The notes: generated by a model from the sequence alone, not told the origin. A DNA stretch of 62,611 nucleotides from an uncultured Lentisphaeraceae bacterium (GCA_964557205.1 CAZKZI010000002.1:1-62611), one strand, 5' to 3'. Numbered from the stretch's first letter, positions 24,611 to 56,055 are shown. Made by a program: numbers and translations.

Positions 24611-24631
24611 TTCTGCCGAGCATGTTGTTGT

Positions 24632-27386: not shown

Positions 27387-28067
27387 TCAGGGCTCCGGTG
27401 GCGGTTTGAAGCCGTTGAGCGTTTCGATCAGCGTGTAGACGGTTGTGCAGGGGTTGGCGCGTGAAGGTGGCGTTTGGAACGCGACGACATCATTATGGAG
27501 GCGCTTAGCCCAAGCAATCGCCTGGGCCTGCTTGCCGGTTTGCGAAAGGACTTGATACATGTCCACGGCGTTCTTCGCGTAAGGCCGGTCCATCAGGTCC
27601 GTGAGTTTGTCTTGATACTCGGTGCGGGGCATGGCGGTGATGCGGTACTCGAAATGGAGCACGTACCAGAGTTCGAAAGCCTCGTTCGACCAGGCGGCCT
27701 TCATGCCCTGATTCTCGGCTTTCAAAATGGCGTTGTCGAAATTAGCGGGCGGGAAGCTGTCGCGGTCAAAGACGACCCAGACCTGGTCGAACGGATAATC
27801 ACTGTCGGCCCGCTCGTCACGCAGCGCCTGCGCTTTCTCGACCAGCCGCAAGGTGTTGTCGCCCTCGCCGCTGATTTCCACTTCAATGACATGCAGGGGC
27901 AATTCGGCTTTGATAGCCTTGAAGTAATTGGGCTCGGTCTTCTCGCCCTCGCAGACGATCAAGAGACGCTGCCGCTCAGCCAAAGCGTCGACTTGTCGTT
28001 TGAGGCTTTTTTGGCTGCGAAGGTGCCACGGCGTGTTGCGGTCGCTAATCTTGACGGGTTTCCCCAT
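27387..28067 (-). CDS. RloB-like (Toprim-related) protein
   Basis: LLIVCEGEKTEPNYFKAIK ... FDQVWVVFDRDSF ... AWSNEAFELWYVLHF is the RloB family signature. The start overlaps the upstream ATPase gene by 23 nt. Confidence 0.85.
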   Translation of the reverse strand: MGKPVKISDRNTPWHLRSQKSLKRQVDALAERQRLLIVCEGEKTEPNYFKAIKAELPLHVIEVEISGEGDNTLRLVEKAQALRDERADSDYPFDQVWVVFDRDSFPPANFDNAILKAENQGMKAAWSNEAFELWYVLHFEYRITAMPRTEYQDKLTDLMDRPYAKNAVDMYQVLSQTGKQAQAIAWAKRLHNDVVAFQTPPSRANPCTTVYTLIETLNGFKPPPEP

Positions 28068-29355
28068 GATCCGTCTCCTTCAAGAGGGTTTCGAAGTGGC
28101 CCAGATAGGGGATCGCGCCGTAGCGGCCGCGGATGTAATTGGCGGCAAGATCCGCATCATTGCGCACCTTGGAGCCGTCCGGGAGTTTGAACTCGGCCAA
28201 CGAATAGAGCGTCGTGGCGGCGAGGCGGTCCTTTTCCGTGAACCAGATCTGGTCGCGGCGCAGCTTGCCCTTTTCGAGCAGCATCGTGTCGTGCGTGACA
28301 AAGATCAACTGCGCGCCCTTGGGATTCGTCACGGTGGAGTTGAACATTCCGACGATGGCCTTGGTCAGTAGCGGGTGCAACTTGGCGTCCAACTCGTCGA
28401 TAGCCACCACGTAACCGTTGTCGAGGCAATCTAGAAGCGGGGCGGCCATGCGCAGGAACTTCTTAGTGCCTTCTGACTCTCGCTCGTTAAATGGAAAAGG
28501 TATGAGGATGTCCGGTTCACCGTCACGAAACCGTTGATGGATCGCTGAAATCTTCAGAGACGTTTGGTTGCGCAATTTGTTCTGCATTTCCGGGGTAAAG
28601 AACTTGAGATATCCTTCGTCGGCAGAAGTTGGCGCTTCATTGACGCTGAGTTCTGAGATTCCGACATCCGCGTTTCTGACAAAACGCACAAGTTGATCAT
28701 GCTTTGTCACGTCTTGGATGCAACGAGCGGTATAGGCGTCAAACATTTGATCGTTCAGTCCGTGGATCGTCCGGAAGTCGTTAAACCACTTGAGGATGTG
28801 ACCGGCAGTCTCGCCGTTGAACTGCGCGACGACCGAGAGGAAGAGGGCGTTATCGCGGGTCTTATCCTCCAGTCCGGAGCCCTCCTTGAACGTTTTGCGG
28901 ACGTCGATGCCGTCGTCCTCGCGCAGGAAGAGGGTGGTCTCTTTGGTCTTTTCCGTGCGGAGCAGCCATTCCTTGCGGACGGCCTTGCTGTCGGCCTCGA
29001 AACCATAGCGGTAACGCGCGCCGTTCTGGATAAGCGTGATCTCGAAGCGGCTCGGGGCGTTTTCGGTGGCGGTGTCCAGCAGGAAAGGCTTGACGGGTAT
29101 ATCATCCTCGACCTGAGTTTCCTTGGACGAGGAGAGTACGAAGCGCCGCATGAAGACCATGGCGGCGATCAGGTTCGACTTGCCGCTTGCGTTGGCGCCA
29201 TAGATGGCGGCGCTTTTTAGCAGGCGGGTATCGTCGGAGCCGGCCTCGAAGGTGTTATCATCGAGCTGCTCCTTGTAGGCGTTCACGGCGACCATGCTGA
29301 GCCGCACGGGGTCCTTGAACGAAAGATAGTTGCCGACTTCGAAATCGATCAACAT
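28045..29355 (-). CDS. AAA_15/AAA_21-type ABC-like ATPase (RloA/OLD-N-terminal-like)
   Basis: MLIDFEVGNYLSFKD..., Walker A IYGANASGKSNLI, the C-terminal VVAIDELDAKLHP (Walker B/D-loop) and QLIFVTHDT (H-loop). Confidence 0.85.
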   Translation of the reverse strand: MLIDFEVGNYLSFKDPVRLSMVAVNAYKEQLDDNTFEAGSDDTRLLKSAAIYGANASGKSNLIAAMVFMRRFVLSSSKETQVEDDIPVKPFLLDTATENAPSRFEITLIQNGARYRYGFEADSKAVRKEWLLRTEKTKETTLFLREDDGIDVRKTFKEGSGLEDKTRDNALFLSVVAQFNGETAGHILKWFNDFRTIHGLNDQMFDAYTARCIQDVTKHDQLVRFVRNADVGISELSVNEAPTSADEGYLKFFTPEMQNKLRNQTSLKISAIHQRFRDGEPDILIPFPFNERESEGTKKFLRMAAPLLDCLDNGYVVAIDELDAKLHPLLTKAIVGMFNSTVTNPKGAQLIFVTHDTMLLEKGKLRRDQIWFTEKDRLAATTLYSLAEFKLPDGSKVRNDADLAANYIRGRYGAIPYLGHFETLLKETDHGETRQD

Positions 29356-33245: not shown

Positions 33246-34715
33246 ATGGAAAAAGGCTTTTATTGGGGGTTGGTAAACAGACTGCATGCCGCAGTAGCGG
33301 CTGGCCTACTGGCGCTCTTATCAGGCTGCTGTTATCATGCGGTCAAGCCCTTGCCGGATGGGCTTTCGTATAGCAGCGGGTGGCTACCGGTGCCGGAAGC
33401 CCGGTTCTTGAGCGACCGCTCCGGTGTGGACGCTGTCGGGCGGCGGCTGGTGGAACAGGAGATTTTCGACGAGGTGTTCGGCATGATCGCCCGAGCCGAA
33501 AGGCTGGTGCTGGTAGACATGTTCCTGTTCAATGATTTTCTCGGCGTCGGTCCGCCGCCGCACCGCTGTCTCAGCAAAGAGCTGACCGAGACCCTGATCG
33601 CGCGCAAGCGTGCTGTGCCGGGATTGCGTGCGGTGCTGATCACCGACCCGGTGAATACAGTTTACGGCGGCATGGAGAACACTTATCTAAAACGTTTGGA
33701 GGCGGCTGGGGTCGAGGTGGTTGTCACCCGCCTGGAGGCGCTGCGCGACAGCAACACCGCCTGGTCGAGCGTATGGAGATTGTTCGTCCAACCTTTTGGC
33801 AACAGCCCGGGCGGCCGGGTGGCAAACCCTTTCGGTCCGGGCCGGGTCACTGTGCGCAGTTGGCTGGCGCTGCTCAACTTCAAGGCCAACCATCGTAAAG
33901 TGGTGGTGGCAGACGCGGGCGGCAGGCTGTACGCGCTGGTTACTTCCGCCAACCCGCATGACGGCAGCAGCGCCCACTCGAACGTCGGGATTGTGTTCGA
34001 GGGCGTGGCGGCGCAGGCAGTGCTGGAGACGGAGCAGGCGGTGCTGGAATTCAGCGCCGCGCCGACAGCGCCTTTATGCAACGAGTTCGTGGATGCCGCG
34101 GCGCACGCCGGGGGTCTGCCTGACGCGGGCGGAGTGCGGTTGCAGGTGCTGACCGAAGCGGCGATCGCAGATGCGGCCGAGGCCATGATAGACAGCTTGG
34201 ATGCAGGTGATCGGCTGGACCTGGTCATGTTTTATCTGGCTGACCGCGGTGTTGTCTGTGCGCTCAAGGCTGCGGCAGGATGCGGCGTGTCCTTGCGCGT
34301 GGCACTTGATCCGAACAAGGACGCTTTCGGGCGGCAGAAAAGCGGGATGCCGAACCGGCAGGTGGCGCGGGAACTGGTGGCGGCGGGTGTGCCGGTGCGC
34401 TGGGCGGTGACGAGCGGCGAGCAGATGCATTCCAAGCTGCTGTTGGCGCGAAGGGCTGACGGCTCGGCTGATCTGCTTTTGGGCTCGGCAAACTTCACGC
34501 GCAGGAATCTTCGGGACTACAATCTGGAGACCAACGTGCGTTTGTCCGGCGGAGCTGAAACGCCCGCGCTGTGCGCTGCGGCGGATTACGCCGAGCTGGT
34601 CTGGAACAACACAGGGCGCGTTTACACGACAGCTTACGAGAAGTATCGCGACGATTCGCGCTGGCGCGTCTGGCGTTACCGACTGCAGGAGGCCACTGGT
34701 CTCTGCACCTGGTAA
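33246..34715 (+). CDS. phospholipase D-family (two HKD motifs) lipoprotein
   Basis: Lipobox LLALLSGC. HKD-1 is NHRKVVVAD. HKD-2 is MHSKLLLARR...LLGSANFTRRN. Confidence 0.85.
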   Translation: MEKGFYWGLVNRLHAAVAAGLLALLSGCCYHAVKPLPDGLSYSSGWLPVPEARFLSDRSGVDAVGRRLVEQEIFDEVFGMIARAERLVLVDMFLFNDFLGVGPPPHRCLSKELTETLIARKRAVPGLRAVLITDPVNTVYGGMENTYLKRLEAAGVEVVVTRLEALRDSNTAWSSVWRLFVQPFGNSPGGRVANPFGPGRVTVRSWLALLNFKANHRKVVVADAGGRLYALVTSANPHDGSSAHSNVGIVFEGVAAQAVLETEQAVLEFSAAPTAPLCNEFVDAAAHAGGLPDAGGVRLQVLTEAAIADAAEAMIDSLDAGDRLDLVMFYLADRGVVCALKAAAGCGVSLRVALDPNKDAFGRQKSGMPNRQVARELVAAGVPVRWAVTSGEQMHSKLLLARRADGSADLLLGSANFTRRNLRDYNLETNVRLSGGAETPALCAAADYAELVWNNTGRVYTTAYEKYRDDSRWRVWRYRLQEATGLCTW

Positions 34716-36137: not shown

Positions 36138-38204
36138 TCACCGATCGAGACTGGAGAGAAACTCGGAAATGGGCGTTATGCCTGTGATCAACAGGAAGTC
36201 CCGGGCGCGGGTGGCAGCCACATAGAGCATCTGACGCTCCATCGCCATGATGTCATTCGCATCAGCTTCGCGCATGGCGCAATCCAGCCGCGTTTGGAGC
36301 GGCACCCACATGGCATCGCACGCCATTACCGCAACTGCTTTGAACTCAAGTCCTTCCGCATAGGGCATGGTCGCCATCGCGATTTTTCCCTCTTCATCCG
36401 GGTTTCCTTGGTCTAACAGAACATAGTCTTGCTTTACCAAGGTCACAACCTCTTCGGCACGCGGTAGCAATTCATGGGTGCGCACGAAAATGCAGCACTC
36501 TTGCGGCTTGACCCCTGCCTCAAAAACCTGTTCCAGCCATTGGGCAACCCCGAACTGCTCTTCTTCCTTTGTCATGTACTGTCGGATCGAGGGCGATAAC
36601 CCCGAGAATATTGAGATGGCCTGGCGCCGATCTTCAATGACTCCATCCGCATCCTGAAATTGCTTTGAGACAAAACGATCAGCCAGCATCCGTATCTGAT
36701 GCGAGGTACGGTAGTTGACCTTAAGAATGTGCGAGCGGCCGACAATGTTAATCCCAGCCGATTGCCACGAGACCAGTGGTTGCCGAATCCGCTGTCCTAA
36801 ATCACCTACAAAGAAGAGCGATTGCGGCGTTTTGCGCATGGCGTTAAGCAACACAAGGTGCTCGTGCCGTAAATCCTGGCATTCGTCAGTAATAATGTAA
36901 TCGAATGGATTCTGCAACCTTCCGTCAGCAAGCATCATAGTCACGGTACGAACTTGACGAAAAGGGGGCGTCAGTCCGCGTGCTGCCAGAAGCTTAGTCG
37001 CCCGCTCAACAATTCGCCAGATCTCATGCCGCTGAACCCGACTCAACCGCACAAGTCGTCCTTGTCGCGCTAGCGCGGCATAGGACTCCGGGTTGTCAAC
37101 TCCGGCTACTTCGATCACCTGACTCCACTCGTCAAAGAGGAAGTCTTCCGAATAGTTGTTTAAATCCAAATCGATCCGGGCTTCCTTAAGCGTCTTGCGT
37201 ACCTCCCGCTCATCTGCTGCTGGCGCGGTTGTCGCTTTTCCGTCCAGAAGCAGTTCCGGCAGTGTATCAATTGCCACAACAGTGATGTGTTCAAAAACAG
37301 TTGAATCATCTCCGACTAATCGCTGCACCAGCGAGGCAAGAGATGCGGCCAGTGCCCGGGAGATCGTTGTCAACAGGATTCGTGCTGTGGGCGCTTGACG
37401 TGCCAGGTGCACCGCCCGGTGTAAAGCCACCACCGTCTTGCCAGTTCCCGGACCGCCGCAGATACGCGCATCGCCGTCATCCTCTGCTTCGACCCACTTA
37501 CGCTGTTCGGGGTGAAGGAAGATGCGCCAATCATCCCAGGGCATGGACAAGGCGGCTTGCAGTGCATTCGGCGAATCAATAGCGTAAAAACGGCGGGCTG
37601 CATCGGGTGCGAGAAACGGATTGGTTGTCGCCACTGGCCACCGCGTCACTCGCGGTGTACCGCCGCTCGCCAGTGTCAGCAGGGCTTCGACAGCTTCCTC
37701 CGGCAAATATTCGATAAAGTCCAACAATTCTTTTTCCGAGCGAACACCACGCACATCGTTCACCCACTGATCCGGAATTCCCAGCCAGGCAAATTCGGTT
37801 CGCGGTAGATTGGCGAACAGGGGACGGCGCTGATCGCGTACGGGTGTGGGTCTGGCACGCATTTCTGACTTCACCAGTTCACGCAGAACAACCATCTGCA
37901 TTGCGCCGGTCGTGGGATTGGCAGCAAACTTCCGTTTCTGCGCCCAGGCATAAGCCTGATCGTGGTGGTCGGCATAGCAGAAGAGGGTGCCGTGCTCTGA
38001 GTCATGCAGAATGAGCCGGATGTCCCGCGTACTTCGCAACGACCAGAAGCCAGGATCGCGGCAGCGGTCGAGCCGGTGTTTGCGCAACCCCGGATGGGCG
38101 GGGTTCGCCTGATACATCTCCGCCGCCTCGACCGCGCTCTCTCGCTCAGCGGCCTGCAGTCGCGTCAGACTCTCAGTAAAACTCTTGGCAATGAACAATC
38201 CCAT
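36138..38204 (-). CDS. UvrD/Rep-type SF1 helicase with an N-terminal RelE/ParE-like domain (operon gene 7)
   Basis: Walker A GGPGTGKTVVALHRA, motif II FDYIITDECQDL, motif III FFVGDLGQRI, NYRTSHQI, and motif VI LYVAATRARDFLLITG. The N-terminal ~95 aa (NPAHPGLRKHRLDRCRDPGFWSLRSTRDIRLILHDSEHGTLFCYADHHDQAY) follow the RelE/ParE pattern. Confidence 0.85.
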   Translation of the reverse strand: MGLFIAKSFTESLTRLQAAERESAVEAAEMYQANPAHPGLRKHRLDRCRDPGFWSLRSTRDIRLILHDSEHGTLFCYADHHDQAYAWAQKRKFAANPTTGAMQMVVLRELVKSEMRARPTPVRDQRRPLFANLPRTEFAWLGIPDQWVNDVRGVRSEKELLDFIEYLPEEAVEALLTLASGGTPRVTRWPVATTNPFLAPDAARRFYAIDSPNALQAALSMPWDDWRIFLHPEQRKWVEAEDDGDARICGGPGTGKTVVALHRAVHLARQAPTARILLTTISRALAASLASLVQRLVGDDSTVFEHITVVAIDTLPELLLDGKATTAPAADEREVRKTLKEARIDLDLNNYSEDFLFDEWSQVIEVAGVDNPESYAALARQGRLVRLSRVQRHEIWRIVERATKLLAARGLTPPFRQVRTVTMMLADGRLQNPFDYIITDECQDLRHEHLVLLNAMRKTPQSLFFVGDLGQRIRQPLVSWQSAGINIVGRSHILKVNYRTSHQIRMLADRFVSKQFQDADGVIEDRRQAISIFSGLSPSIRQYMTKEEEQFGVAQWLEQVFEAGVKPQECCIFVRTHELLPRAEEVVTLVKQDYVLLDQGNPDEEGKIAMATMPYAEGLEFKAVAVMACDAMWVPLQTRLDCAMREADANDIMAMERQMLYVAATRARDFLLITGITPISEFLSSLDR

Positions 38205-38210: not shown

Positions 38211-40703
38211 CTACTGCATGGTTCCGATCGCTGAACCCAGTTCCCGATCTTCAATTGTGTCCGTTTTGCGGATAAACCGCGCCACATAATCGGAAAAGCA
38301 GCCTCCTACCTGATTCATGTTAGCAACCATGGTTGGAGGAAAACATACATTAGCAAGCTGTCCGTCAAAGTTAATTAGCCGCAACAATCTTTCCCGCAAG
38401 GGATCATCTTTATTGGCAAGAAAGTCCGGATGCGTTTCACGTACGCTAAGAGCAAAGAGGATAGAAAACAACACGTCCTTCCGTGGCACATCAGCAAAGC
38501 CATTAAGATTGAAGTTTGGCAAATAATTTATCAAAGCGTTCAAATAGCATTGCACAAGTTCAAGATTTATTGTGATTCCAGTATGCCAGCAGAGCATCCT
38601 AAAGAGTGACCAACACAACATTTTCGCTTGCTGTGGATCACTAAAATGTGCGTTTTCGCAATAGTTTACGAGTAATTGAAGATCATCAGGATGATCACCA
38701 AGAACAAAACCAGGGCCATGTGCCTCGGAGTAAGACGGGAATGGTGCGTTAATTCGCAGAAGTGAGCGAATATGATTCTTGTAAGCTTGCGATGCATGTC
38801 CGTGACAGTAGTTGTTCTGCTTACTCCAATTATTACGAAGCTGCATACCAGCAGGTATGTTTCCGTTTTGCCAAAGATGATTCGAGAGAATCTCTGCCAA
38901 CTCGGATATTTCCCTGTCTGGTAACACACGCGTGCCAAACAGACCGCGGGTAGGTTGACTTGGGTGAGCACGCCACCCCCAGCGATCAAGAGCGCTAAAA
39001 GGAAAAATTGGTGCGCAGTGAACCGGGGGAGAATCAACACGATATTGCTGAACAGCATTTTGCAAAGCAGCAATTTGATCTTCTTCCCCATTACAGTATC
39101 TGACCAACAAACTGAGCATTTCCAGATTTGCTGGATCATCATAGATGCGTCCAATTACAGGTTGAGCTTCAAGATAGCCTTTGTGCTCAGGCTCGGGCTT
39201 CGTCTCTCTGCCTTGTGCGTGATCGTCTGGATCAAGGGCATAGGTAAGTATGACGGAGTTTTTTCCCTGTTTTCCGTCCGAAACAAAAGGTCGCGAATCA
39301 TCAGCCGCAGTGACAGTAAACCTGGCGTTTCCCCTTGCTGCTTCTACCGTTGCATCAAGACGCAGAGGCAGTTCTTGTGGCAATGGCGTAAAAAGGTCCA
39401 CCTGAAGCCGACGTGCGTAGTCGTAGTCTGGATCATCACAAGGAAGCCGCCGAACGAGCATGGAAAAGCGATCTCGATGACGGTTGATGCAGAAGGCATT
39501 GTGTATGGCGTCATCATTTAATGTCCACGGGATTCCTGGTTCAACCTCCTGATTGGGAGCAACAAGCTGCCTGCCGCCTTGGCTGGTCCAGATTCTGTAC
39601 TCCGGCAACGTATCGTAGTAGGTCGGTTGATTTTCCGCCCGCCGCTCGGCGAAAAGCCGCGATCCTTCAGCTACCGCTGCAAGCGGTAACACCCGGATAT
39701 TCCGTCCAGGCCATACGCCCTCAAGCATCGCTTTCAACCCGTCCGCATCAAGATGCGTGAGCCATCCGTAAACAAGAATGGTGTCGCCTTGCGCAAGATT
39801 AAAATCCTGATGCGTAAGGACGTTCTGCAAGCCATGCCACGTGTGCGGTAATGCGTCAGGCTTTGTTACATGGACCTTTTGCCAACGTATTCCTGCACAG
39901 ACCCAGATATCAAATGCGCGCGCTTCGGATTCCAACTGCTCCTGCACCTCGGGCGCGGTCTGGCAACATCTTAACTGGTCGCGCTCAGGGATATTGGAAA
40001 ACAACTCACTCCAGGCGCCATTCAGAGCCGTGTAATTAAGGTTTCTCCGACGCTCAATGTCTGTCGCGCAGGTGCGAACTGGCGCAATCCAGGCGTTGTC
40101 GCGCTGATGGCGTCGCCAGGTTAGTCGCGTAAACTCCAGCCCTGCCGAGTCGAGGTCCAGTACCCAGACCGCGCCGGTGCCCTTTGTATTGGCAAAGACT
40201 TCTTCCCCATCGCCAGCGGTTAGCCAATACAGCATGGCGGCCACGGGCCGCCAAAGCAACGATACATCGGAATGGATGCCGCTCAAGGCGCGCAGCAACG
40301 CATCCTGCGCGTCTTCGTTCAACCGGTTGGGGATTACAAAGGCGAGTTTTCCCTGCTCGTTTCTTAATGTAGGCAAATGTGCTTTAAGAGCATCAGCTAC
40401 CAATGATGCGCTTTGCCAGACATTTTTCCTCTGCGTCAAATCGCGCCAGATTGCCTCAATCGAAAGCAGGTTGGCTGTGAAAACAGTAGCGGCGTTATTT
40501 CCCTGTACGATATTGAACTCTCTGTTACATACCTGTGGACGAAAGTTTTTGGGACTGCCCCACGTTATGCGCTCGTCATGATCCTTTGCACCAGCGGCAT
40601 CGGCATAGGGTGGGCAACCGAGGAGAACGTGTCGTGTATTGACAGCTTCTTGTTCTATCTGCCACCGCAGGGCTCGCCCAGAGAGATCAATGCCGACACT
40701 CAT
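38211..40703 (-). CDS. large protein with an N-terminal degenerate Hsp70/actin-fold (ASKHA) ATPase domain (operon gene 6)
   Basis: Collinear matches to DnaK NBD motifs are visible. VGIDLSG matches [28 protein letters not shown] matches [33 protein letters not shown] matches [28 protein letters not shown] matches [26 protein letters not shown] matches [26 protein letters not shown] matches PDEAVAIGAAVQG. The C-terminal ~480 aa are unassigned. Confidence 0.6.
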   Translation of the reverse strand: [830 protein letters not shown]

Positions 40704-42373
40704 GTCATCACCTCCTGAAGCATTTTATGGACTTTGTCCTTGAAGAATCCATTGCTGCCACGCAGCATGTTTTTATCAGGCGGCAACTCCCATAGAACAG
40801 CACGCCCTTTGCGATCTTCCACTCTTGTTCTTTCCGCAGCGCGCACAAGTAACAACATGGGAATCGTAACCGTCGAGCGATTCGTTTCTGGCGAATGCCT
40901 CCATGCGATGCCAGCTTCTTCAACCCCCTTCAAGCATTCGGTGCGTAACGCCTTTGTTTTCATTTCATCCTGCCATCGACCATCGCCGATCAGTGTCCAG
41001 ACTGGAACCGCACGCACTTTTGGCCAGTCGGTAGAAACTGCAATCCAGTAAAGATCGGCATTCAGCCGATCCAGCGACAGGCCGCCCAGGCTGGACACAC
41101 GGCTAACGTCTTCACGGTTGAAAAGATAAAGCGAGATGTGGTTGCCGTCGTTTTCAAAGACAAGCGGACCATCGAAGGGTTCGGCTTTGAACCAGCAACC
41201 AAATTGTGGCTCTTTGAGGATGCGAATTGGTTTCATCGAGGCCTGAAATGCCGGAGGCCTCTCTTGGAATTTCAGGGTCCGCATGACTTCTATCATGCTT
41301 GCACGTACATAGTCGGTCCAGGCACGGCGTTTCCAGCGCCACGTCTGGTCACAAATGTCCTCCTGACGCAGCAACTTCTGATAAGCATCCCAGACCTTCA
41401 TGTACCGGACGTTCTGCTGAAGGGCGTAATTGGGTCTGCGGCAGGGAACTGCCAGCGGCGTCACACTGGTCAAAGTTGGTGATGACAAAAACTGTTCACA
41501 TCGGCGTGCAAAGGCGTCCACCCGACGTACACGTCGGCTGCAAACCGTTTCATCATTATTTCGCAGCAGCTCCCCGGTGCATTTTTTGCAGCGGGCACAC
41601 TCTTCTGCGACATACGCCATTGCTGCTGTTCGAGCGCGTCTACAGAAATCATGTACTACCCGATTTTCCAGGGTATTGGCTGTTTCTTCTCGAATAACCG
41701 CCAAAAGCTGCTGCCGATCTCCGGCTTTAATGACAGAGGTATGCCCTGGACGACGGGCGTAGTCGATAAGTGCGGTGAGGTCCATCTCCTGAAGGCGATC
41801 CAGCCTGACCTGGGCATGTTTACGCTGCAGTAAACGTCTCGGTCTTTCGATGATCTCCTGAAGTGGGCCGGGTAAATCTTCAGCTAGATTACAGATTAAT
41901 GCGCGCGAGGCAAAGTCCTCATCCTGAGATGAAAAAAAACTTTCAATCGCCTCTGTTAATAGCTGCTCAAAAAATAAGTCATACAGTTTCTTACGCTTTT
42001 TATAGAGATCATCGGCAAGTTCCTGCAGGTTATTAGTTAACATGCTATGGAACTTGCCAGGCCACTCCTCATAACTTGTTGACTGGGCACCTTTGTATGG
42101 CAGAATGGTAGTTGTCTCCTGCATTGGTAAACGCAGCGTCAAATCCTGTGGACCATCTGCGCGAAATGACGGGCCGGGAAGTTCGAACCAGAAGCTGCCA
42201 TCTGATAAGCGTGTCGGAGTCAGTCCAACTGCCAGATGTGCCACCTCTTCTTCAGATGCATCATAAATCCAGATGCCTGCGCCGTTGTCCGGTCTAACCC
42301 CTTTGTCAGGCGTAACACCTCTTGCCGGAGAGAGTATTACCTGCCAGGGGTATTCTGTGAATGCCCATGGCAT
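40700..42373 (-). CDS. McrC/DUF2357-like protein, nuclease motif not evident (operon gene 5)
   Basis: IIERPRRLLQRKHAQVRL and EETANTLENRVVHDFCRRA parallel QIRRRPHTLLRRE and LDTQPNRFIKFALQQF in 25043..27037. The position of PDY...DAKY reads ADLYW...IGDGRW. The start overlaps gene 6 by ATGA, and the gene lies 3 nt after gene 4. Confidence 0.5.
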   Translation of the reverse strand: MPWAFTEYPWQVILSPARGVTPDKGVRPDNGAGIWIYDASEEEVAHLAVGLTPTRLSDGSFWFELPGPSFRADGPQDLTLRLPMQETTTILPYKGAQSTSYEEWPGKFHSMLTNNLQELADDLYKKRKKLYDLFFEQLLTEAIESFFSSQDEDFASRALICNLAEDLPGPLQEIIERPRRLLQRKHAQVRLDRLQEMDLTALIDYARRPGHTSVIKAGDRQQLLAVIREETANTLENRVVHDFCRRARTAAMAYVAEECARCKKCTGELLRNNDETVCSRRVRRVDAFARRCEQFLSSPTLTSVTPLAVPCRRPNYALQQNVRYMKVWDAYQKLLRQEDICDQTWRWKRRAWTDYVRASMIEVMRTLKFQERPPAFQASMKPIRILKEPQFGCWFKAEPFDGPLVFENDGNHISLYLFNREDVSRVSSLGGLSLDRLNADLYWIAVSTDWPKVRAVPVWTLIGDGRWQDEMKTKALRTECLKGVEEAGIAWRHSPETNRSTVTIPMLLLVRAAERTRVEDRKGRAVLWELPPDKNMLRGSNGFFKDKVHKMLQEVMT

Positions 42374-42376
42374 AAA

Positions 42377-44050
42377 TTAATTGTCTTCCCCGTATGCCCA
42401 ATCCAACCCCTGCCAGTGGAAGAAACCGGAGCGGTTTTTCTGTCTGTTTACAGCGTTATCAAAAGCAGTATTCAGGGTGTCATCGCCAATTAGTTGGACC
42501 GTTTCTCCTACCAGCTCCAGTGTCTGAGCATGTTGTGTAAGGTCCAGTCCACGCAGTTTGGGCATGATGCGCATGCCAATCTGATCGGCCAGCGGACGTT
42601 TAAAGAAACCTAGTGTATCACTCTCGTCAATTCCCGCAGCCTTGTATGGATAGTTTGCCAGATAGCTCAGCATGGCCTGGTAGGATCTGTGCGCAAATGG
42701 ACGTCCCAGGTTTGCTAATTCGTTATTGAGTCTTTTGAGTTGCTGCTCTGCTATATGCCAACGACCATTTTCCTGTGTGTCAATTGCAGTAACGTCTTGC
42801 TTCCAATTTTCCCAGGCTGTGCGTTGCAGCATCTTTTGTGTGCCATTCTGTTTATCGGCTGTCATAGGTTTCAAGTTGTTGGGCCGCCCGAAATAGAGCA
42901 CATTTGCCCGATCAAGAACCTTGTCTGAGAGACTTTGGGTAGTTTCGTCCTCGTTCATTGTGCCGACAAAAAGCGTATTGTAATTTGCGAACAGTTGGAT
43001 TGGTTTTTCCCTGAATTCAACTTCTTGGTTGTTTTCCCCCTCCTTTTCAAAACCGTTGGCACCTGCGAATATCTCCATTGCAACTCTGCGCCGATGTTCG
43101 GTATCGTCTAGCCTGCCCCCGCGACGCAACTCCAGCTTGCTCAGGAACTCACTGAAGTAGTATTCAATACGTGCCAGGTTCATCTCATCCAGCATTGCCA
43201 TCAGCATGTATTCACTGAGGTCAGGGTCAGGATGTAACCCCTCCTGCGGGTGATGTCCCTGAAACTGAAACAGCGCTTTGGCAAGCGGTGTCGGTTCATA
43301 GCGGTTGGTGACATAGTTAAAGAATCCGAGAAGATCCTTGGGGCTGTCCCAACGCGGCTCAACCGCCAACGTAACCAGATGTATGCCCATGGCTTTGGCA
43401 TAGAGATCCGGCAGGGCGCTTTTTCCTGTTCCGCTCACGCCCGCCATAACCGTCAGGCTGGATATATCGGAGGTCTTAAGTGAGGTGTGGAAGGCATAGA
43501 GCAGACGCTCTGGCAGATCATATTCACGAATATTACGAACATAGTTCTTCATGCCATCCAATGCCTGGGTCTCAGATTTAAATTCCTGATCGGCAGATGG
43601 AGTTGTAAATACCGGATTTTTGACAATCCCCTCAAATGCCGCCTGTCGCAGAACAACCGGCCTCTCTTTCCGTGCCTTTGCAATGGCGGCAAGATCATCC
43701 ATCATCTGTTGGTTGGTCTGACATATTGAATGTTGTAACTCCCTTGTACTCTTGAGCGTTTCGTCCAGGGCCTTCAGTGCCTTAGCCTTTGATTCGTATT
43801 CCTGTGCTTTGGACCCCAGATTCTCAATAGCCTCGTTGATCTTTTTGAGCTTGGCTTCGTTCGGGCCAATTTCGTTTTCAAGGTCGTTCTTTTTTGCTTT
43901 CAGTTTGCTTATTTCAGGAATCAACTGCCCCACCCGTTCCTGTGCTTGTTCGATTTGATTTTTCAACGTATCAAGCGATGTGCGGGCTTCATCTCGATCC
44001 TTGCGAAGTCTTTCCAATTCATCCGCGAGCAAGGCATGTTCTGACTCCAT
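42377..44050 (-). CDS. coiled-coil + McrB-family AAA+ NTPase (operon gene 4)
   Basis: The N-terminal ~110 aa have heptad-rich coiled-coil character. Walker A is MAGVSGTGKSALPDLY. Walker B region is MLDEMNLARIEYYFSEFLSKLE. FVGTMNEDETTQSLSDKVLDRANVLYF is present. It is clearly paralogous to the AAA+ module of 22025..24610. Confidence 0.8.
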   Translation of the reverse strand: MESEHALLADELERLRKDRDEARTSLDTLKNQIEQAQERVGQLIPEISKLKAKKNDLENEIGPNEAKLKKINEAIENLGSKAQEYESKAKALKALDETLKSTRELQHSICQTNQQMMDDLAAIAKARKERPVVLRQAAFEGIVKNPVFTTPSADQEFKSETQALDGMKNYVRNIREYDLPERLLYAFHTSLKTSDISSLTVMAGVSGTGKSALPDLYAKAMGIHLVTLAVEPRWDSPKDLLGFFNYVTNRYEPTPLAKALFQFQGHHPQEGLHPDPDLSEYMLMAMLDEMNLARIEYYFSEFLSKLELRRGGRLDDTEHRRRVAMEIFAGANGFEKEGENNQEVEFREKPIQLFANYNTLFVGTMNEDETTQSLSDKVLDRANVLYFGRPNNLKPMTADKQNGTQKMLQRTAWENWKQDVTAIDTQENGRWHIAEQQLKRLNNELANLGRPFAHRSYQAMLSYLANYPYKAAGIDESDTLGFFKRPLADQIGMRIMPKLRGLDLTQHAQTLELVGETVQLIGDDTLNTAFDNAVNRQKNRSGFFHWQGLDWAYGEDN

Positions 44051-44055
44051 TCGGG

Positions 44056-44475
44056 CTATTTCAGTTTTTCGGCTTGTGCTATCAATTCCTGGATTTTATC
44101 ATTTAGATTTTGAAGCTCCCTTTGCTTGGTATTGATCTCGGCCACCAGATTGGCAAGTATTTTTTCCAATGCCTCCCGTTCCCCATCTAATCTTGGCTTC
44201 TCATATTCAAGCCAATCCTCGGCCTCTTTTTTTCTCCTTAAAATCTCTGTAACCTTTGTATATTCGTCGTTCAAATTTTCAAGCTGTTTGCTCAACAACG
44301 TAGCTTTTTCAGCATTTTCAATTTGATTTTTTAAGGCAGTCAACTCTTTGTCAGCGTTACTGCGCAATAGCGCAACTTGTTCTTCGAGATCGCGTTTTTC
44401 GCGGGCTTTGCTGATATAGATGACGATTGCCAGAACAGCAGATGCCAGATAGGCGATAATTAGATGATTTTCCAT
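44056..44475 (-). CDS. small membrane-anchored coiled-coil protein (operon gene 3)
   Basis: An N-terminal hydrophobic helix (LIIAYLASAVLAIVIYI) is followed by KAREKR and ~110 aa of E/K/L/Q-rich coiled-coil sequence. It shares LKNQIE(N/Q)A with the gene 4 N-terminus. Confidence 0.65.
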   Translation of the reverse strand: MENHLIIAYLASAVLAIVIYISKAREKRDLEEQVALLRSNADKELTALKNQIENAEKATLLSKQLENLNDEYTKVTEILRRKKEAEDWLEYEKPRLDGEREALEKILANLVAEINTKQRELQNLNDKIQELIAQAEKLK

Positions 44476-44499
44476 AATGATGTTCCTGTTAGTTTGAGA

Positions 44500-45768
44500 T
44501 TATGGTTGCGGCTGGAGGTCAGCATCCGCGTTCCCAGTCGCACCTGCCGGAGCCTTCGCATTAGTAGCGCGAATGAATCGCTCAAGTTCAGCAAGATCCT
44601 TTTTGAGCTGTTCCAGCGTCTTGCGCACAATCAATTCATCGCGCCTCGCCTCGTCCAGGCGTTTGTGAGCTTCGGCTGCGCCGATCCGCGCCTCTGCCTC
44701 GGCTTCACGTGCTTTCATTTCTCCTTCTTTGGCAGCCTTGAGCCGCGCCTCCGCCTCGGCGACCTGTGTTTGCACCTTTTTTAATGCGGATTGCAGCTCA
44801 ATGATCTCAGCCGTTGCCTTATCGATTTGATCTTTCAGATCGCGAAGTTTTTCATTTGCCTGCTCAACTTGTGCCGTGTATTTGGACGCCTCAGTGCGCC
44901 TGGCATCAGTCTGTTCGCGTGCCGATTTCAGATTTGCCTGTTCCAAGGCCAGCTCCTCCTTGATCTCCGACAGCAGCTTGTTGGTGGCAGTAAGTTGAGC
45001 TTCCACTGCTGTTTTGGCTTGCAGAGCGACCGCCTGTTCCTGTTTCAGATCGTTCAGCCTCTTTTGTTCTTTTTTGATCTCCGCAAGAGTCGTATTCAGG
45101 CTGGAGAGAGCATTTTTCAATTCGGCGTCCTTCTCGTCGATTTCCGCACCCAGACGTTTTTTATCGTCGCCCAGGGTGACGATATCCTTGTTCAATTGGT
45201 CACGGCGTTTCTCGGCATCAAGTGCTTCCTGCGTCAATCGCGGCACGCGTATTTCAAGCCCCTGCAATGCTACAGCCACTGTGTTGGTATGCGCCTGCAG
45301 GTTTGCCGACTCCTGTTTTAGAAACTCTGTTTCTTCACTAACTTTTCCATTCTCGATTCGCAGTAGATGATTCGTCCGCGACAGAGTTTGGCAAATACTT
45401 TCAGCCGCCATACGATCCGCTTCAGCATTTTTACGCAATTCATTCTCTTTGTTATGGGCTGCTATAGCACTTTGCAGTTTGGTGTTAGCTTCTCTAACGC
45501 GATCAACCAGGTTGGTTAATTCAATTTCGGTTTCCACCGTCTCCTGAACCTTCCGGCTAGTTTTTTTATTGAGCTTGTCAATTTCTTCGTTGAGAGAGAC
45601 AACCTCCTTTTTTTTATCACGTATGCGAGCCTTGATATTAAAAAGTTCAACTTGCGGCAGTAATCCGACGATAACGACACTGATAAAAATAATCAAGACG
45701 CACAGTTCAATGATGCCCTGCCAACGTTTTTTATCCGGCTTGCGCACCTGTTTTTCAGTCTGTTCCAT
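44500..45768 (-). CDS. membrane-anchored long coiled-coil protein (operon gene 2)
   Basis: The ORF-track start TTG 45777 overlaps gene 1. ATG 45768 lies 9 nt after GAGGAG and 1 nt after the gene 1 stop. One TM helix (GIIELCVLIIFISVVIVGLL) is followed by ~380 aa of coiled-coil-type sequence. Confidence 0.65.
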   Translation of the reverse strand: MEQTEKQVRKPDKKRWQGIIELCVLIIFISVVIVGLLPQVELFNIKARIRDKKKEVVSLNEEIDKLNKKTSRKVQETVETEIELTNLVDRVREANTKLQSAIAAHNKENELRKNAEADRMAAESICQTLSRTNHLLRIENGKVSEETEFLKQESANLQAHTNTVAVALQGLEIRVPRLTQEALDAEKRRDQLNKDIVTLGDDKKRLGAEIDEKDAELKNALSSLNTTLAEIKKEQKRLNDLKQEQAVALQAKTAVEAQLTATNKLLSEIKEELALEQANLKSAREQTDARRTEASKYTAQVEQANEKLRDLKDQIDKATAEIIELQSALKKVQTQVAEAEARLKAAKEGEMKAREAEAEARIGAAEAHKRLDEARRDELIVRKTLEQLKKDLAELERFIRATNAKAPAGATGNADADLQPQP

Positions 45769-45769: not shown

Positions 45770-46396
45770 TTAATCAACTCCTCTCATTTGATTCCAAAGT
45801 GTCTTTACCTGTTTGGCACATTCATCCATGTCTTGCATCAACTCTGACACCCAAAACCGTTTAACCGACCATCCAGCGGCTACGAGTTTTGCGTCCCGTA
45901 TAACATCTTGTACTTTGCGACGTCCTCTCCTGTCGCAATGGGTGGAGCGTCCGTCCACCTCCACGTCCAGACGTTGACATCCGTCTGACGATACGAGAGC
46001 GATGTCAAGAAAGTACCCCTCGGCAGGATACTGTTGGAAGATGTTAAGTCCCATCTTCCAGAGCTTGTCGGCAAATGCCGGTTCCCAGACTGGACCGATA
46101 AAGGCGGGATTACCCACTAGCGTTGGGCCGCTAGATGATGAACAAGATGGCGTGTTGACCGATTTTGAAAGTGTTTTATCAGAAGCAGAAAACTGCTTGA
46201 GACACCAGAGTGTGCCGTGATTTATTGACACAGCATTTTCATCGGACAGGTCGGCCATGGCCATGGCAACCTGGCTCAGGCGGGTGGCAAAACCGATACG
46301 CATACGCAGCACATAAAATCCCATGCCGACCGGCGAACCGGCCAGGTTTTCCTTAATCGCTTGTTTCAGTGTTTCATCTCGCAACGCAGATGGCAT
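45770..46396 (-). CDS. DUF559 / Vsr-like restriction-endonuclease-fold protein (operon gene 1)
   Basis: The C-terminal half FADKLWKMGLNIFQQYPAEGYFLDIALVSSDGCQRLDVEVDGRSTHCDRRGRRKVQDVIRDAKLVAAGWSVKRFW follows the DUF559 pattern (E..f...L...g....Q..v..Y.lDfa....l.iEvDG..H.....D..Rd..L...Gw.v.Rf). The N-terminal ~110 aa are unassigned. Confidence 0.7.
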   Translation of the reverse strand: MPSALRDETLKQAIKENLAGSPVGMGFYVLRMRIGFATRLSQVAMAMADLSDENAVSINHGTLWCLKQFSASDKTLSKSVNTPSCSSSSGPTLVGNPAFIGPVWEPAFADKLWKMGLNIFQQYPAEGYFLDIALVSSDGCQRLDVEVDGRSTHCDRRGRRKVQDVIRDAKLVAAGWSVKRFWVSELMQDMDECAKQVKTLWNQMRGVD

Positions 46397-46649
46397 GTTT
46401 TTGAAAACCTTAAAAACAGACGTAAATATATCCTGTCACATTAATAAAGATATACCATTCACATCATTATTCGAAACTATAACTGGGTTGCGTACTGATG
46501 GCAAGTCTCTTTGAGAGGAAGATGGCAGACGGGTTGTGATTGATTTTTGGCACCGCTGGAAGTAGTATATATACGGTTTATGTACGCGAATTAGTTTCTC
46601 ATTTGCCTTTCGAGTTATGTAGGACAAGTCAGGATTCAGCGGGGGAGTT
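46397..46649. promoter_or_regulatory. AT-rich divergent intergenic region (likely promoters of the seven-gene operon and of 46650..48803)
   Basis: A 253-nt gap between divergent starts, markedly AT-rich. I could not pin convincing -35/-10 hexamers. Confidence 0.35.
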
Positions 46650-55059: not shown

Positions 55060-56055
55060 ATGCCGATTCGTTTGAGTCGTTTTGAAATGCCAAGGCGCGT
55101 TCAGAAGGAAGATAACACCGCCACCGCCACCTACTCGCGTTTTACCGCGGAACCGTTTGAAGTTGGGTATGCCCGCACTATCGGCAACTCACTTCGGCGT
55201 GTTTTGCTGTCTTCCATCGAGGGGGTTGCGATCACATCCGTAAGGATCGCCGACGTCAGCCACGAGTTTGCGTCTCTAAAGGGCGTCAGCGAGGATGTGA
55301 CGGACATCATCCTGAACCTCAAAGGAGTCTTGTTGAAAAGTTACAGCCGCAGTCCGATTTGGCTGAAGCTGAACAAAAAAGGCCCCTGCGTGGTCACGGC
55401 TGCCGATTTTGCCGATGAAAACTCGATAGAGGTTCTGAATCCCAACCATCCTATTGCGACACTTGACACTGACGGTGTGCTGCAGCTTGAAGCGGAGATC
55501 CGCACCGGGCGCGGCTTCTGTGCGGCTGAAGGCAACAAGTCGGACGAGCAGGAAATCGGAAGAATTCCGATTGACAGCATTTTCTCGCCTGTTTCCCGTG
55601 TTAATTTCTTGGTAGAGAACACGCGCGTGGGCCAGCGCACAGATTATGAGAAGCTGGTGATTGATATCTGGACGGATGGGCGGATCACACCGGATGATGC
55701 TTTGAAGACGGCAGCGGCGGTGCTTCGCCACCATCTTGACGTTTTTGTGGATTACAGCGAAGAGGTTTTGGAGTTCGAAGAGTCGGAGAAGAAGGTCGAT
55801 GAAGAGCGTGACCGTCTGCGCCGCATACTGAACATGAGCGTCAACGAGATCGAGCTCAGCGTGCGCGCGGCCAACTGTCTGAACAACGCTAACATCACGA
55901 CCGTCGGTGAGCTGGCGATGAAGACCGAGGCTGACATGCTGAAATATCGCAATTTCGGTAAGAAGTCGCTAAACGAGATCAAGGACAAACTGTCCGAGTT
56001 GGGGCTCTGTTTGGGATACAAGTTTGATGCAGCTTTGATCGAGAACAACAAATAA
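55060..56055 (+). CDS. rpoA: DNA-directed RNA polymerase alpha subunit
   Basis: FTAEPFEVGYARTIGNSLRRVLLSSIEGVAITSVRI... and the C-terminal domain ELSVRAANCLNNANITTVGEL...NFGKKSLNEIKDKL. Confidence 0.95.
   Translation: MPIRLSRFEMPRRVQKEDNTATATYSRFTAEPFEVGYARTIGNSLRRVLLSSIEGVAITSVRIADVSHEFASLKGVSEDVTDIILNLKGVLLKSYSRSPIWLKLNKKGPCVVTAADFADENSIEVLNPNHPIATLDTDGVLQLEAEIRTGRGFCAAEGNKSDEQEIGRIPIDSIFSPVSRVNFLVENTRVGQRTDYEKLVIDIWTDGRITPDDALKTAAAVLRHHLDVFVDYSEEVLEFEESEKKVDEERDRLRRILNMSVNEIELSVRAANCLNNANITTVGELAMKTEADMLKYRNFGKKSLNEIKDKLSELGLCLGYKFDAALIENNK

Follow-up and report, generated by a model that had tools for sequence, protein, structure and literature searches.

CoCoNuTs (coiled-coil nuclease tandems) form a large class of McrBC-derived systems that was predicted entirely by computation (Bell et al., eLife 2024, PMC11090510). 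The same 2024 work described both coiled-coil McrB fusions, i.e., the CoCoNuTs, and one transmembrane (TM) helix-bearing relative, CoCoPALM (PMC11090510). No experimental test of any CoCoNuT type was found in the literature. In Type III-B CoCoNuTs, the GTPase presents an NxD rather than an NxxD signature, usually followed by E or D, CnuC comprises DUF2357, an inactivated PD-(D/E)xK domain and an N-terminal Ig-like domain, and CnuH corresponds to a UPF1-like SF1 helicase fused to a Vsr-like nuclease (PMC11090510). In CoCoPALM, the GTPase bears an FtsB-homologous TM and coil domain, coils are found on both the McrB and McrC homologues, and a signal-peptidase-family or pilus-assembly gene is included (PMC11090510).

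The window considered here, namely, the whole 62,611-nucleotide stretch analyzed, derives from an uncultured Lentisphaeraceae bacterium, the RpoA of which groups with Kiritimatiellia upon clustering. It contains a minus-strand operon running from 46396 to 36138 that, as assigned from architecture rather than from placement in a tree, is probably a helicase-less variant of the Type III-B CoCoNuT, with a predicted anti-phage role. The region under study corresponds to the front half of this operon, where the ORFs delineated in the original prediction were confirmed, all on the minus strand. The features of the operon are as follows:

46476..46504, minus strand: sigma-70-like promoter match (TTGCCA-17-TATAGT, 10/12) upstream of gene 1, consensus match only
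45770..46396, minus strand: gene 1, 208 aa, 'mini-CnuH', N-terminal CnuH segment with a predicted Vsr-like (MTES_1575/DUF559) PD-(D/E)xK nuclease domain attached directly to it
44500..45768, minus strand: gene 2, 422 aa, CnuA-like single-pass membrane protein with a coil of ~360 aa (hydropathy, heptad score, homology)
9 nt upstream of the gene 2 ATG, minus strand: AGGAG Shine-Dalgarno sequence
45658-45717, minus strand: predicted gene 2 TM helix, residues 18-37
44056..44475, minus strand: gene 3, 139 aa, N-terminal CnuB fragment, collinear with residues 1 to ~135 of relatives
44410-44466, minus strand: predicted gene 3 TM helix, residues 4-22, then the KAREKR positive patch and the first part of the coil
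within the gene 3 coil part: conserved (W/F)LE..P.L.AE motif
44065..44069, minus strand: A5 run, GCCGAAAAACTG on this strand, the most economical frameshift site
42377..44050, minus strand: gene 4, 557 aa, C-terminal CnuB fragment, coil (residues 1 to ~129) plus McrB-like AAA+ GTPase
43418-43441, minus strand: gene 4 Walker A, GVSGTGKS; Walker B is MLDEMN and the signature is GTMNEDE, with N-E-D at 42947-42955
40700..42373, minus strand: gene 5, 557 aa, CnuC-like McrC homologue with a DUF2357 domain (Pfam DUF2357, 3.4e-09)
38211..40703, minus strand: gene 6, 830 aa, CnuD-like, Hsp70-like nucleotide-binding plus substrate-binding unit, with an all-helical C-terminal repeat region (~residues 524-828)
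36138..38204, minus strand: gene 7, 688 aa, UvrD-like SF1 helicase (Pfam) plus a 225-aa N-terminal domain

The number of promoter sites found in the region by a sigma-70-like consensus scan was not above that in shuffled sequences, and the match at 46476..46504 is a possible promoter of the operon.

The operon resembles a Type III-B CoCoNuT in encoding an NxD GTPase with an N-terminal coil (CnuB, the coil here being cut by a frameshift), a McrC homologue that has DUF2357 and in which no active nuclease motif was seen (CnuC), a separate Hsp70-like protein with helical repeats (CnuD), a separate coiled-coil-only protein (CnuA) and a Vsr-like PD-(D/E)xK effector, in having no TerY-P module, and in presenting the same gene order as seen in related loci. 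It differs in that gene 1 is without the UPF1-like helicase core that defines CnuH, in that CnuB is frameshifted in the window, and in that a UvrD-like helicase follows CnuD, an arrangement found only in the window, L001 and L012. The hosts of the relatives include Planctomycetota, Verrucomicrobiota, Kiritimatiellia and Desulfobacterota, as well as Alphaproteobacteria.

In gene 4, GTMNEDE represents the NxD+E variant of the GTPase signature, the N, E, D and E of which are invariant in 62 aligned relatives. AlphaFold2 modelling (pLDDT 83) led to Foldseek matches with dynein AAA modules, MoxR/NorQ and McrB (6hz4_E, 6e-05), placing the GTPase in the dynein/MoxR/McrB AAA+ clade with McrB not being the closest match. 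Sequence-only PDB searches with the GTPase did not find McrB, and the score against Pfam AAA_5 (19 bits) lay under the cutoff of 22. Gene 4 also matches the PADLOC model PDC-M26A (7e-39), such that the family has already been flagged as a candidate defence gene; genes 5 and 6 matched no PADLOC model at E up to 0.01, and no mention of PDC-M26 was found in the literature.

As for the partner proteins, Pfam DUF2357 was matched in 25/25 members of the CnuC family, none of which matched nuclease models, while inspection of the gene 5 C-terminal region revealed a retained 'ADLYWIAV' element without a (D/E)xK motif. Judged by its motifs, CnuC would be a McrC homologue with an inactive nuclease. The AlphaFold2 model of gene 6 (pLDDT 79.6, pTM 0.76) returned DnaK, Hsp70, Hsp110 or BiP as all of its best 47 Foldseek matches (best E = 4.5e-11), and the family profile, when compared with PDB sequences, found only the DnaK nucleotide-binding domain, collinear from residue 1 (E = 0.13). 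Gene 1 matches Pfam MTES_1575 (1.1e-11) and DUF559 (1.1e-07). Its residues 33-106 match residues ~40-126, and its residues ~100-200 match residues ~1050-1150, of the same 1040-1240-aa CnuH-type proteins from related loci, which carry AAA_11/AAA_12 helicase domains. Such fusion of the Vsr-like nuclease to an SF1 helicase was seen in 40 related loci; the SF1 helicase core is absent from gene 1, and a short Vsr-like nuclease of 170-221 aa is found in the window and in L001, L002, L006, L007 and L052. Gene 7, with matches to UvrD-helicase (8.5e-14) and UvrD_C (1.7e-12) and an N-terminal domain without a Pfam match, may be an accessory or replacement helicase, its membership in the system being uncertain.

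Genes 2, 3 and 4 had been presented in the original prediction as three consecutive proteins. In relatives, however, genes 3 and 4 are one gene. Indeed, complete relatives in species-representative genomes were in all 77 cases at least 638 aa long (median, 704), and in 72 of these 77 a TM-like segment was detected within the first 80 aa. Of the best 119 database matches, 115 were at least 600 aa long, and all but one of these (114) carried such a segment, the exception being a start-codon miscall. Gene 3 is collinear with the N-termini of these relatives, its opening MENHLIIAYLASAVLAIVIYISKAREKR matching the MENYILLAYLASAILAIVIYVNKARKQK of P0003. Moreover, adding one A at 44065-44069 fuses genes 3 and 4 into a single 699-aa ORF that reads ...ELIAQAEKTEIARMESEHALL... 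The break corresponds to a -1 frame change at or near the A5 run, with both frames being jointly open across only ~16 codons around the run; upstream, the gene 4 frame reads KTEIARMESE, matching the EIAxMESE of relatives. Taken together, genes 3 and 4 are fragments of what was ancestrally a single gene, CnuB, and the three coiled-coil ORFs are really two genes, namely, CnuA and a split CnuB. Intact CnuB is predicted to comprise a short external N-terminus, one TM helix, a cytoplasmic coil of ~250 aa and a McrB-like NxD GTPase.

Given how no split CnuB was encountered among the 77 genomic and 115 long database relatives, it is improbable that genes 2, 3 and 4 are three functional proteins in which homologous gene 3 and gene 4 coils pair, so as to recruit a soluble McrB-like hexamer non-covalently to a membrane anchor. 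This reading can draw on the coil-rich nature of both genes 3 and 4, on the appearance of the same split in an independent contig, and on a conserved Met 5 nt past the gene 3 stop that would permit coupled translation. The two genes were earlier said to share a near-identical stretch, yet the segment in question shows 10/19 identities (BLASTP E = 0.048, single pairwise comparison), a likeness that is ordinary for two coiled coils and not significant. Furthermore, in the AlphaFold2 model of the repaired protein, where helices at residues 2-199 and 211-271 precede the AAA+ domain, the break sits within the first of these continuous helices, meaning that, were the coil parallel and homomeric, the two fragments would follow one another along its length instead of lying alongside each other. 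What appeared to be a second case of a split CnuB was rejected, as it reflects a scaffold gap.

Whether the cell nonetheless makes intact 699-aa CnuB was considered in two forms. The break maps to a homopolymer, and one extra base there restores a full-length ORF of typical size, as expected of an assembly or consensus error. Such an error is quite unlikely, since the identical junction was found in the independent contig L086 (3674 nt at 100%; separately assembled, with a MEGAHIT-style name) and the exact 557-aa gene 4 product is present in four contigs, although these may stem from related samples. Upon alignment, the junction in the window also contains a 5-aa insertion not seen in any of the relatives, which points to genuine local rearrangement and not to one base having been miscalled. 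Alternatively, programmed -1 ribosomal frameshifting on GAA-AAA-C could yield full-length CnuB and, with it, a regulated mixture of anchored and free GTPase. The shift needed is in the -1 direction and, by inspection, slippage of Lys-tRNA on A-AAA would give exactly the repaired protein. The site is not, however, a canonical X-XXY-YYZ heptamer, the downstream 80 nt are less stable than shuffled sequences (z = +1.88; 197/200 shuffles fold at least as well), and the arrangement was seen in none of the relatives, making this explanation very unlikely. A genuine frameshift in CnuB is thus the preferred reading. In this genome, the anchor (gene 3) and the coil-GTPase (gene 4) would accordingly be made as separate products, with gene 4 probably still being translated by reinitiation at the pre-existing Met, a residue conserved in close relatives. 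The frameshift separates anchor from GTPase, such that the tether is probably lost, and the system, its gene 4 product untethered, is probably impaired or decaying.

TM segments were called by Kyte-Doolittle hydropathy (19-residue window, threshold 1.6) and topology was assigned from charge counts. Among the seven operon proteins, only genes 2 and 3 exceeded the threshold, peaking at 3.14 (residues 19-37) and 2.22 (residues 4-22), respectively, in agreement with the single TM helix ascribed to each from the outset. By a heptad-register score, 75% of gene 2 was flagged, as against 13% in composition-matched shuffles, along with 79% of gene 3 (shuffles, 21%) and residues 1-105 of gene 4 (shuffles, 3%), with genes 5 and 6 scoring 0%; in profile searches, the coil regions matched the coils of SMC, myosin and NDC80. 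The coil that follows the TM helix and KAREKR patch of gene 3 and the ~110-aa coil that opens gene 4 were hence borne out. For gene 2, ~380 aa of uninterrupted coil had been proposed; the coil itself stands, whereas residues 132-176 fall under the heptad threshold and interrupt it.

In 72 CnuB relatives, the tail preceding the TM segment has a median length of 8 aa and contains 0.43 K+R, whereas the 15 aa following the segment contain 3.26; K+R is higher on the C-terminal side in 61 of the 72. By this charge bias, the CnuB coil and GTPase are predicted to be cytoplasmic, as the positive-inside rule had led the original prediction to place the gene 3 coil. Retention of the McrB-like ATPase on the inner side of the membrane, as proposed earlier, holds for the family as well, although probably not for this genome, where the tether is likely to have been lost upon frameshift. 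Tethering through the pairing of homologous coils, by contrast, did not hold up, as the relatives carry TM helix, coil and GTPase on one polypeptide. Rather, membrane tethering appears to be a conserved trait of the family that is realized by fusion, the anchors having been kept across phyla. TM helices, which go unmentioned for Type III-B CnuA and CnuB in the main text of PMC11090510, are the rule here.

In at least 56 related loci, the ORF directly preceding CnuB encodes a TM helix plus coil. Gene 2 is homologous to the gene at this position in L001 (30% identity, E = 2e-37), with the reservation that coil similarity is generic and cannot prove orthology. By position and architecture, gene 2 is taken to be CnuA, which evolves fast, spans the membrane once and bears a long coil. 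CnuA could be oriented opposite to CnuB, its N-terminus inside and its coil periplasmic, serving as an envelope-side sensor that signals to the GTPase via TM-TM contacts rather than coil pairing. Across 56 CnuA-like proteins, net charge is +1.12 in the 15 aa before the TM segment versus -0.25 after it, with 37 of the proteins more positive on the N side and 12 on the C side, yet bare K+R counts are balanced (2.46 versus 2.68), and the ORF start codons are uncertain, such that N-terminal tails may be over-extended. Gene 2 itself has six K+R before the TM helix and four after, and CnuA is conserved most strongly in its TM region. Kiritimatiellia are a diderm lineage, and the host should therefore possess a periplasm. 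Against this orientation, the cytoplasmic coil of CnuB tends to be much longer where a locus has no CnuA, hinting that the extra coil acts in the cytoplasm. Receiver domains, moreover, are a cytoplasmic type of domain. The Type I-B CnuA bears such a domain (PMC11090510), which likewise speaks against a periplasmic coil. On balance, a periplasmic CnuA is considered unlikely.

Like CoCoPALM, the family described here fuses an N-terminal TM helix and coil to an NxD McrB-like GTPase. The N-terminus showed no Pfam match to DivIC/FtsB even at E up to 5. Unlike CoCoPALM, none of the seven operon proteins matched signal-peptidase or pilus-assembly families, the McrC homologue (gene 5) has no coiled coil, and Hsp70-like and Vsr components are found instead. 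With classical McrBC of E. coli K-12, the operon shares Walker A, Walker B and a GTMN-type signature in an AAA+ NTPase, together with a DUF2357 partner. It departs from McrBC in its signature (NxD rather than NxxD), in bearing a coil and TM helix where McrBC has its N-terminal DNA-binding domain, in the absence of a (D/E)xK motif from the partner and in having three extra components; the earlier remark that classical McrBC does not feature membrane anchoring was correct. A canonical McrBC pair is encoded in the same window (22025-27037), with its McrC matching PDDEXK_7 and keeping PD...DAK.

Membrane anchoring combined with cytoplasmic nuclease activity is known from Shield and Zorya. ShdA of Shield is a membrane protein with a long coiled coil and, on the same chain, a cytoplasmic RmuC nuclease domain, constructs without the anchor being uncloneable, which suggests toxicity (PMC10270631). 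In Zorya, ZorAB is a 5:2 ion-driven motor and the 70-nm cytoplasmic coiled-coil tail of ZorA recruits ZorC and ZorD (PMC11946911). As in these systems, anchoring plausibly allows for action at genome entry and limits self-damage; the likeness is one of working principle only, with no sequence or domain homology.

In the intact system, the CnuB AAA+ ring would assemble with CnuC, the McrC homologue predicted to be nuclease-dead, and Hsp70-like CnuD, and the CnuB stalks and TM helices would keep the resulting complex on the inner side of the cytoplasmic membrane, where CnuA may adjoin it as a partner coil or sensor. The sensing of invading or aberrant nucleic acid would then turn on the Vsr-like nuclease encoded by gene 1, with membrane confinement directing activity to the site of phage genome entry and lessening self-damage.

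For annotation, the lesson is that three "hypothetical coiled-coil proteins" correspond to two genes of a known system. The anchors make fractionation, localization and anchor deletion simple handles on CoCoNuT mechanism, and the frameshifted CnuB offers a natural anchor-cut allele that can be compared with intact relatives. The TM helices of CnuB, together with an adjoining membrane-anchored coil protein in most loci, tilt the expected mechanism toward action at the membrane, similarly to Shield and Zorya. More speculatively, and with considerable doubt, membrane tethering may define and be required by Type III-B (perhaps also Type III-C) CoCoNuTs, with CnuA, which may face the periplasm, and CnuB forming a two-component membrane device that couples an envelope event, such as phage genome entry or membrane perturbation, to the cytoplasmic GTPase, Hsp70-like protein and Vsr nuclease. 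If so, the system, although derived from McrBC, would sense location instead of base modification.

The genes considered here form a seven-gene cluster on the minus strand in which neighbors are tightly spaced or overlap by 3-4 bases, with a G+C content of 47-54%, as compared to 56-65% in the flanks.

Genes of the cluster and the site preceding it
46504-46476, minus strand: candidate promoter-like site upstream of gene 1
45770-46396, minus strand: gene 1, 208 aa, Vsr-like nuclease domain
44500-45768, minus strand: gene 2, 422 aa, transmembrane (TM) helix and coil
44056-44475, minus strand: gene 3, 139 aa, TM helix and coil
42377-44050, minus strand: gene 4, 557 aa, coil and GTPase domain
40700-42373, minus strand: gene 5, 557 aa, DUF2357 protein
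38211-40703, minus strand: gene 6, 830 aa, Hsp70-like protein
36138-38204, minus strand: gene 7, 688 aa, UvrD-like helicase

When Kyte-Doolittle hydropathy was calculated over 19-residue segments, only the products of genes 2 and 3 among the seven proteins exceeded the threshold of 1.6 (3.14 at residues 19-37 and 2.22 at residues 4-22, respectively), in agreement with the original prediction of TM helices in these two proteins. The coiled coils predicted for both and for the N-terminus of the gene 4 product were likewise borne out by a heptad-register score, which flagged 75% of gene 2, 79% of gene 3 and residues 1-105 of gene 4, well above composition-matched shuffles (13, 21, and 3%, respectively); the score was 0% for genes 5 and 6. 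NCBIfam and PDB profile searches returned matches to SMC, myosin, and NDC80 coils. The gene 2 coil, originally described as uninterrupted, loses its heptad signal between residues 132 and 176, and the stretch thought to be near-identical in genes 3 and 4 amounts to 10 identities in 19 positions (E = 0.048 in a single pairwise comparison), a level expected by chance for coils. Pairwise BLASTP among genes 2, 3, and 4 yielded short, non-significant coil matches only.

Nor are three separate coil proteins encoded, since genes 3 and 4, by comparison with their unsplit relatives, are a single gene, CnuB, here frameshifted. Database relatives of gene 4 are typically 640-690 aa long, with an N-terminus that is ~120 aa longer and that presents a TM helix and, after it, a coil, opening with MENYILLAYLASAILAIVIYVNKARKQK in one such protein (P0003), as compared to MENHLIIAYLASAVLAIVIYISKAREKR in gene 3. 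Of the best 119 database matches, 115 are 600 aa or longer, and 114 of these contain a TM segment, the single exception being a start miscall at L001, the closest related locus (from a Bacteroidales MAG), where correction of the start codon gives a 703-aa ORF. In a set of 83 non-duplicate related genomic loci, all 77 CnuB homologues with a complete 5' end are at least 638 aa long (median, 704), 72 contain a TM-like segment within the first 80 aa and none is split. Cultured strains among the sources of candidate intact relatives include Caenispirillum bisanense USBA 140, Desulfopila sp. IMCC35006, and Botrimarina hoheduenensis Pla111. Gene 3 is collinear with the N-termini of full-length relatives, including a conserved (W/F)LE..P.L.AE motif. 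This motif (~44167-44217, minus strand; residues ~87-103 of repaired CnuB) lies within an otherwise fast-evolving coil, with A98, E99, and L103 being near-invariant across 62 relatives, and may act as a hinge or bind a partner.

At the junction, the gene 3 stop codon (TAG, 44056-44058) lies 5 nt upstream of the gene 4 ATG, with the two frames being offset by -1 and jointly open for only ~16 codons. Upstream of its ATG, the gene 4 frame reads KTEIARMESE, matching EIAxMESE of the relatives, and addition of one A to the run of five at 44065-44069 yields a 699-aa ORF. Because the junction also contains an insertion of 5 aa, the exact mutational event is uncertain. An isolated error does not account for the break: the exact 557-aa gene 4 product was found on four contigs, one of which, an ENA contig from a separate assembly, shows 100% identity over 3674 nt, junction included. 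Programmed -1 frameshifting at the break was considered and rejected, as both a canonical heptamer and downstream structure are absent. A presumed second split CnuB, P0095, instead reflects a scaffold gap of Ns. The position of the gene 4 start Met (44048-44050, minus strand) is also Met in seven of eight close intact relatives aligned (in the context xMESE, or MEGE in one); that intact CnuB genes too give rise to a soluble, internally started isoform is a possibility raised by these alignments.

As for orientation, the CnuB tail preceding the TM helix is short (median, 8 aa) and contains on average 0.43 Lys and Arg residues, as compared to 3.26 in the 15 aa that follow, with the C-terminal side being the richer in 61 of 72 proteins and net charge agreeing with these counts. 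This bias predicts an N-out/C-in topology, as the GTPase requires, and so upholds the proposed cytoplasmic location of the gene 3 coil. The idea of a membrane-tethered GTPase thus stands for CnuB, whereas the mechanism put forward, namely pairing of separate coils, does not, and in this genome the tether is broken.

Gene 2 was also compared with the genes found at the same position elsewhere. The GTPase gene is directly preceded, in at least 56 loci, by an ORF of 300-630 aa whose product has a single TM helix near the N-terminus and is otherwise rich in coil; 49 of 56 such ORFs were connected by pairwise phmmer comparisons that left shuffled sequences unmatched, and gene 2 shares 30% identity (E = 2e-37) with its L001 counterpart. 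When 1.84 billion representative proteins were searched with gene 2 by phmmer at E values up to 0.001, only four relatives were detected, such that the CnuA family is untraceable by sequence. Despite this, the slot and its architecture are kept across several phyla. A profile built from 49 CnuA-like proteins matched gene 2 at 3.7e-23 and none of 140 shuffles. The same profile, however, matched the coil regions of all 78 CnuB proteins as well (E values as low as 3e-94), and its score was therefore rejected as proof of membership, reflecting generic coil similarity. As such, gene 2 is a CnuA-type partner by virtue of position and architecture rather than profile score. No conserved motifs were found in CnuA outside the TM region and heptad leucines.

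For CnuA, whose start codons are uncertain, the charge pattern predicts no single orientation: Lys and Arg counts around the TM helix are balanced (2.46 vs. 2.68), net charge favors a positive N-terminal side, being +1.12 there and -0.25 on the other side (N > C in 37 proteins, C > N in 12), and gene 2 itself has six Lys and Arg before the helix and four after. Some CnuB homologues from Phycisphaerae/Planctomycetota (L031, L049, L055, and L074) reach 1346-2295 aa through hugely extended coils. One reading, by which proteins of this length are fusions of CnuA to CnuB and could settle the orientation of CnuA, was rejected since their high scores correspond to several overlapping generic coil matches. 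Three of these loci (L049, L055, and L074) have no CnuA-like gene, a hint that a longer CnuB coil may substitute for CnuA.

The remaining genes define the system. The gene 4 GTPase contains Walker A (GVSGTGKS) and Walker B (MLDEMN) motifs and the signature GTMNEDE, an NxD+E form of the NxxD motif of McrB that is invariant in 62 relatives, and matches the PADLOC candidate PDC-M26A at 7e-39. An AlphaFold2 model of repaired CnuB (pLDDT 83) was placed by Foldseek in the dynein/MoxR/McrB AAA+ clade, with McrB (6hz4_E) matched at 6e-05. As PDB searches by sequence alone gave no McrB match for the GTPase domain, and no match at all for the gene 5 product, CnuC, McrB was matched by fold comparison only. 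Gene 5 encodes a DUF2357 (McrC N-terminal domain) protein; this domain was matched by 25 of 25 family members and nuclease models by none, with the (D/E)xK motif missing. For gene 6 (CnuD; model pLDDT 79.6), the best 47 Foldseek matches were all DnaK, Hsp70, Hsp110, or BiP (top E = 4.5e-11), a helical C-terminal region being predicted after the Hsp70-like part; the sequence profile alone gave a weak collinear match to the DnaK nucleotide-binding domain.

Gene 1 encodes a Vsr-like MTES_1575/DUF559 nuclease domain that, in 40 related loci, forms the C-terminus of a 1040-1240-aa SF1 helicase, CnuH; the CnuH gene precedes CnuA in 31 loci and follows the Hsp70-like gene in nine. Residues 33-106 of gene 1 resemble the CnuH N-terminus and residues ~100-200 the C-terminal nuclease, with the helicase core (~950 aa in full-length CnuH) absent, such that gene 1 looks like a "mini-CnuH" from which that core was deleted. 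Short nuclease proteins (170-221 aa) also replace the fusion in L001, L002, L006, L007, and L052. The UvrD-like helicase, gene 7, follows CnuD only in the window, L001, and L012. At relaxed thresholds (E up to 5), Pfam gave no match to the N-terminal domain of either gene 1 or gene 7. By eye, the first ~90 residues of the N-terminal 225 aa of gene 7 (37530-38204, minus strand) resemble RelE/ParE-type toxins; if so, they would parallel the RNase-toxin-like domains that other CoCoNuT helicases are reported to carry.

In Type III-B CoCoNuTs, a computationally predicted class, CnuB is described as having an NxD motif and a coil and the nuclease of CnuC as inactivated, Hsp70-like CnuD and coil-only CnuA are encoded separately, and the helicase CnuH carries a fused Vsr-like nuclease (Bell et al., 2024; PMC11090510). 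In architecture, the present gene set matches this description, an assignment that follows from the rest of the operon, i.e., the identities of genes 4, 5, 6, and 1; CnuA-less cyanobacterial loci fit Type III-C of the same authors. By contrast to the description, gene 1 lacks the helicase core, an additional helicase, gene 7, is present and may replace that of CnuH, and CnuB is frameshifted. The main text of the eLife paper and that of the preprint are silent on TM helices in CnuA and CnuB of Type III-B, and the sole TM-bearing relative named there is the undescribed CoCoPALM clade (PMC11090510). The locus does not fit the latter: Pfam gave no match to FtsB/DivIC, a signal-peptidase gene is absent, and the McrC homologue is without a coil. 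It is a variant form within a known, computationally defined class.

Comparison with L001 revealed 88.6% nucleotide identity between window positions 40967-43717 and L001 positions 10580-13330 (a stretch covering the GTPase and the greater part of the McrC-like gene) and at most 66% outside this region; protein identity is 94% for the GTPase, 35% for both coil parts, and 30% for CnuA. This mosaic relationship points to recombination or, alternatively, to much faster evolution of coils and anchors.

The surroundings contain further defence-type genes.

Defence-type genes elsewhere in the window
22025-27037, plus strand: canonical McrBC pair (861-aa MrcB_N protein and 664-aa DUF2357 + PDDEXK_7 protein)
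28045-29355, minus strand: AAA_21 ATPase
33246-34715, plus strand: PLD-like protein

In the McrC of the canonical pair, the PD...DAK motif is intact, providing an internal control for the apparently nuclease-dead gene 5. Low G+C content is seen at ~16-26 and ~36-46 kb; together with the several defence-type genes, these two stretches suggest a composite defence island at 16000-46400. A tRNA scan for an integration site found no tRNA gene. RpoA (55060-56055) falls in a cluster of at least 90% identity with RpoA from MAGs of the Kiritimatiellia, a diderm lineage.

What is documented here, namely the set of parts, the conservation of the anchors, the break in the tether, and the charge bias for cytoplasmic CnuB, provides the basis on which a mechanism can be proposed. 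In an intact system, a CnuB ring, together with CnuC and the Hsp70-like CnuD, would be held under the inner membrane by CnuB stalks, modeled as a ~200-residue helix, a break, and a ~60-residue helix, with CnuA lying beside this assembly in the membrane. The Vsr-like nuclease would be licensed once foreign or aberrant nucleic acid is recognized, and membrane confinement would direct activity to the site of phage genome entry and limit self-damage. By analogy, precedents may be found in ShdA, a membrane-bound protein for which anchor-less constructs could not be cloned, suggesting toxicity (PMC10270631), and in ZorA, whose 70-nm cytoplasmic coiled-coil tail recruits nuclease effectors (PMC11946911).

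In this genome, if translation reinitiates at the conserved Met, the resulting gene 4 product would be a free cytoplasmic protein, and the break falls inside what is modeled as one continuous helix of repaired CnuB. Given such an untethered product and the position of the break, the system here is more likely impaired than rewired. Across the family, it is the conservation of the membrane anchors in CnuA and CnuB that merits follow-up.
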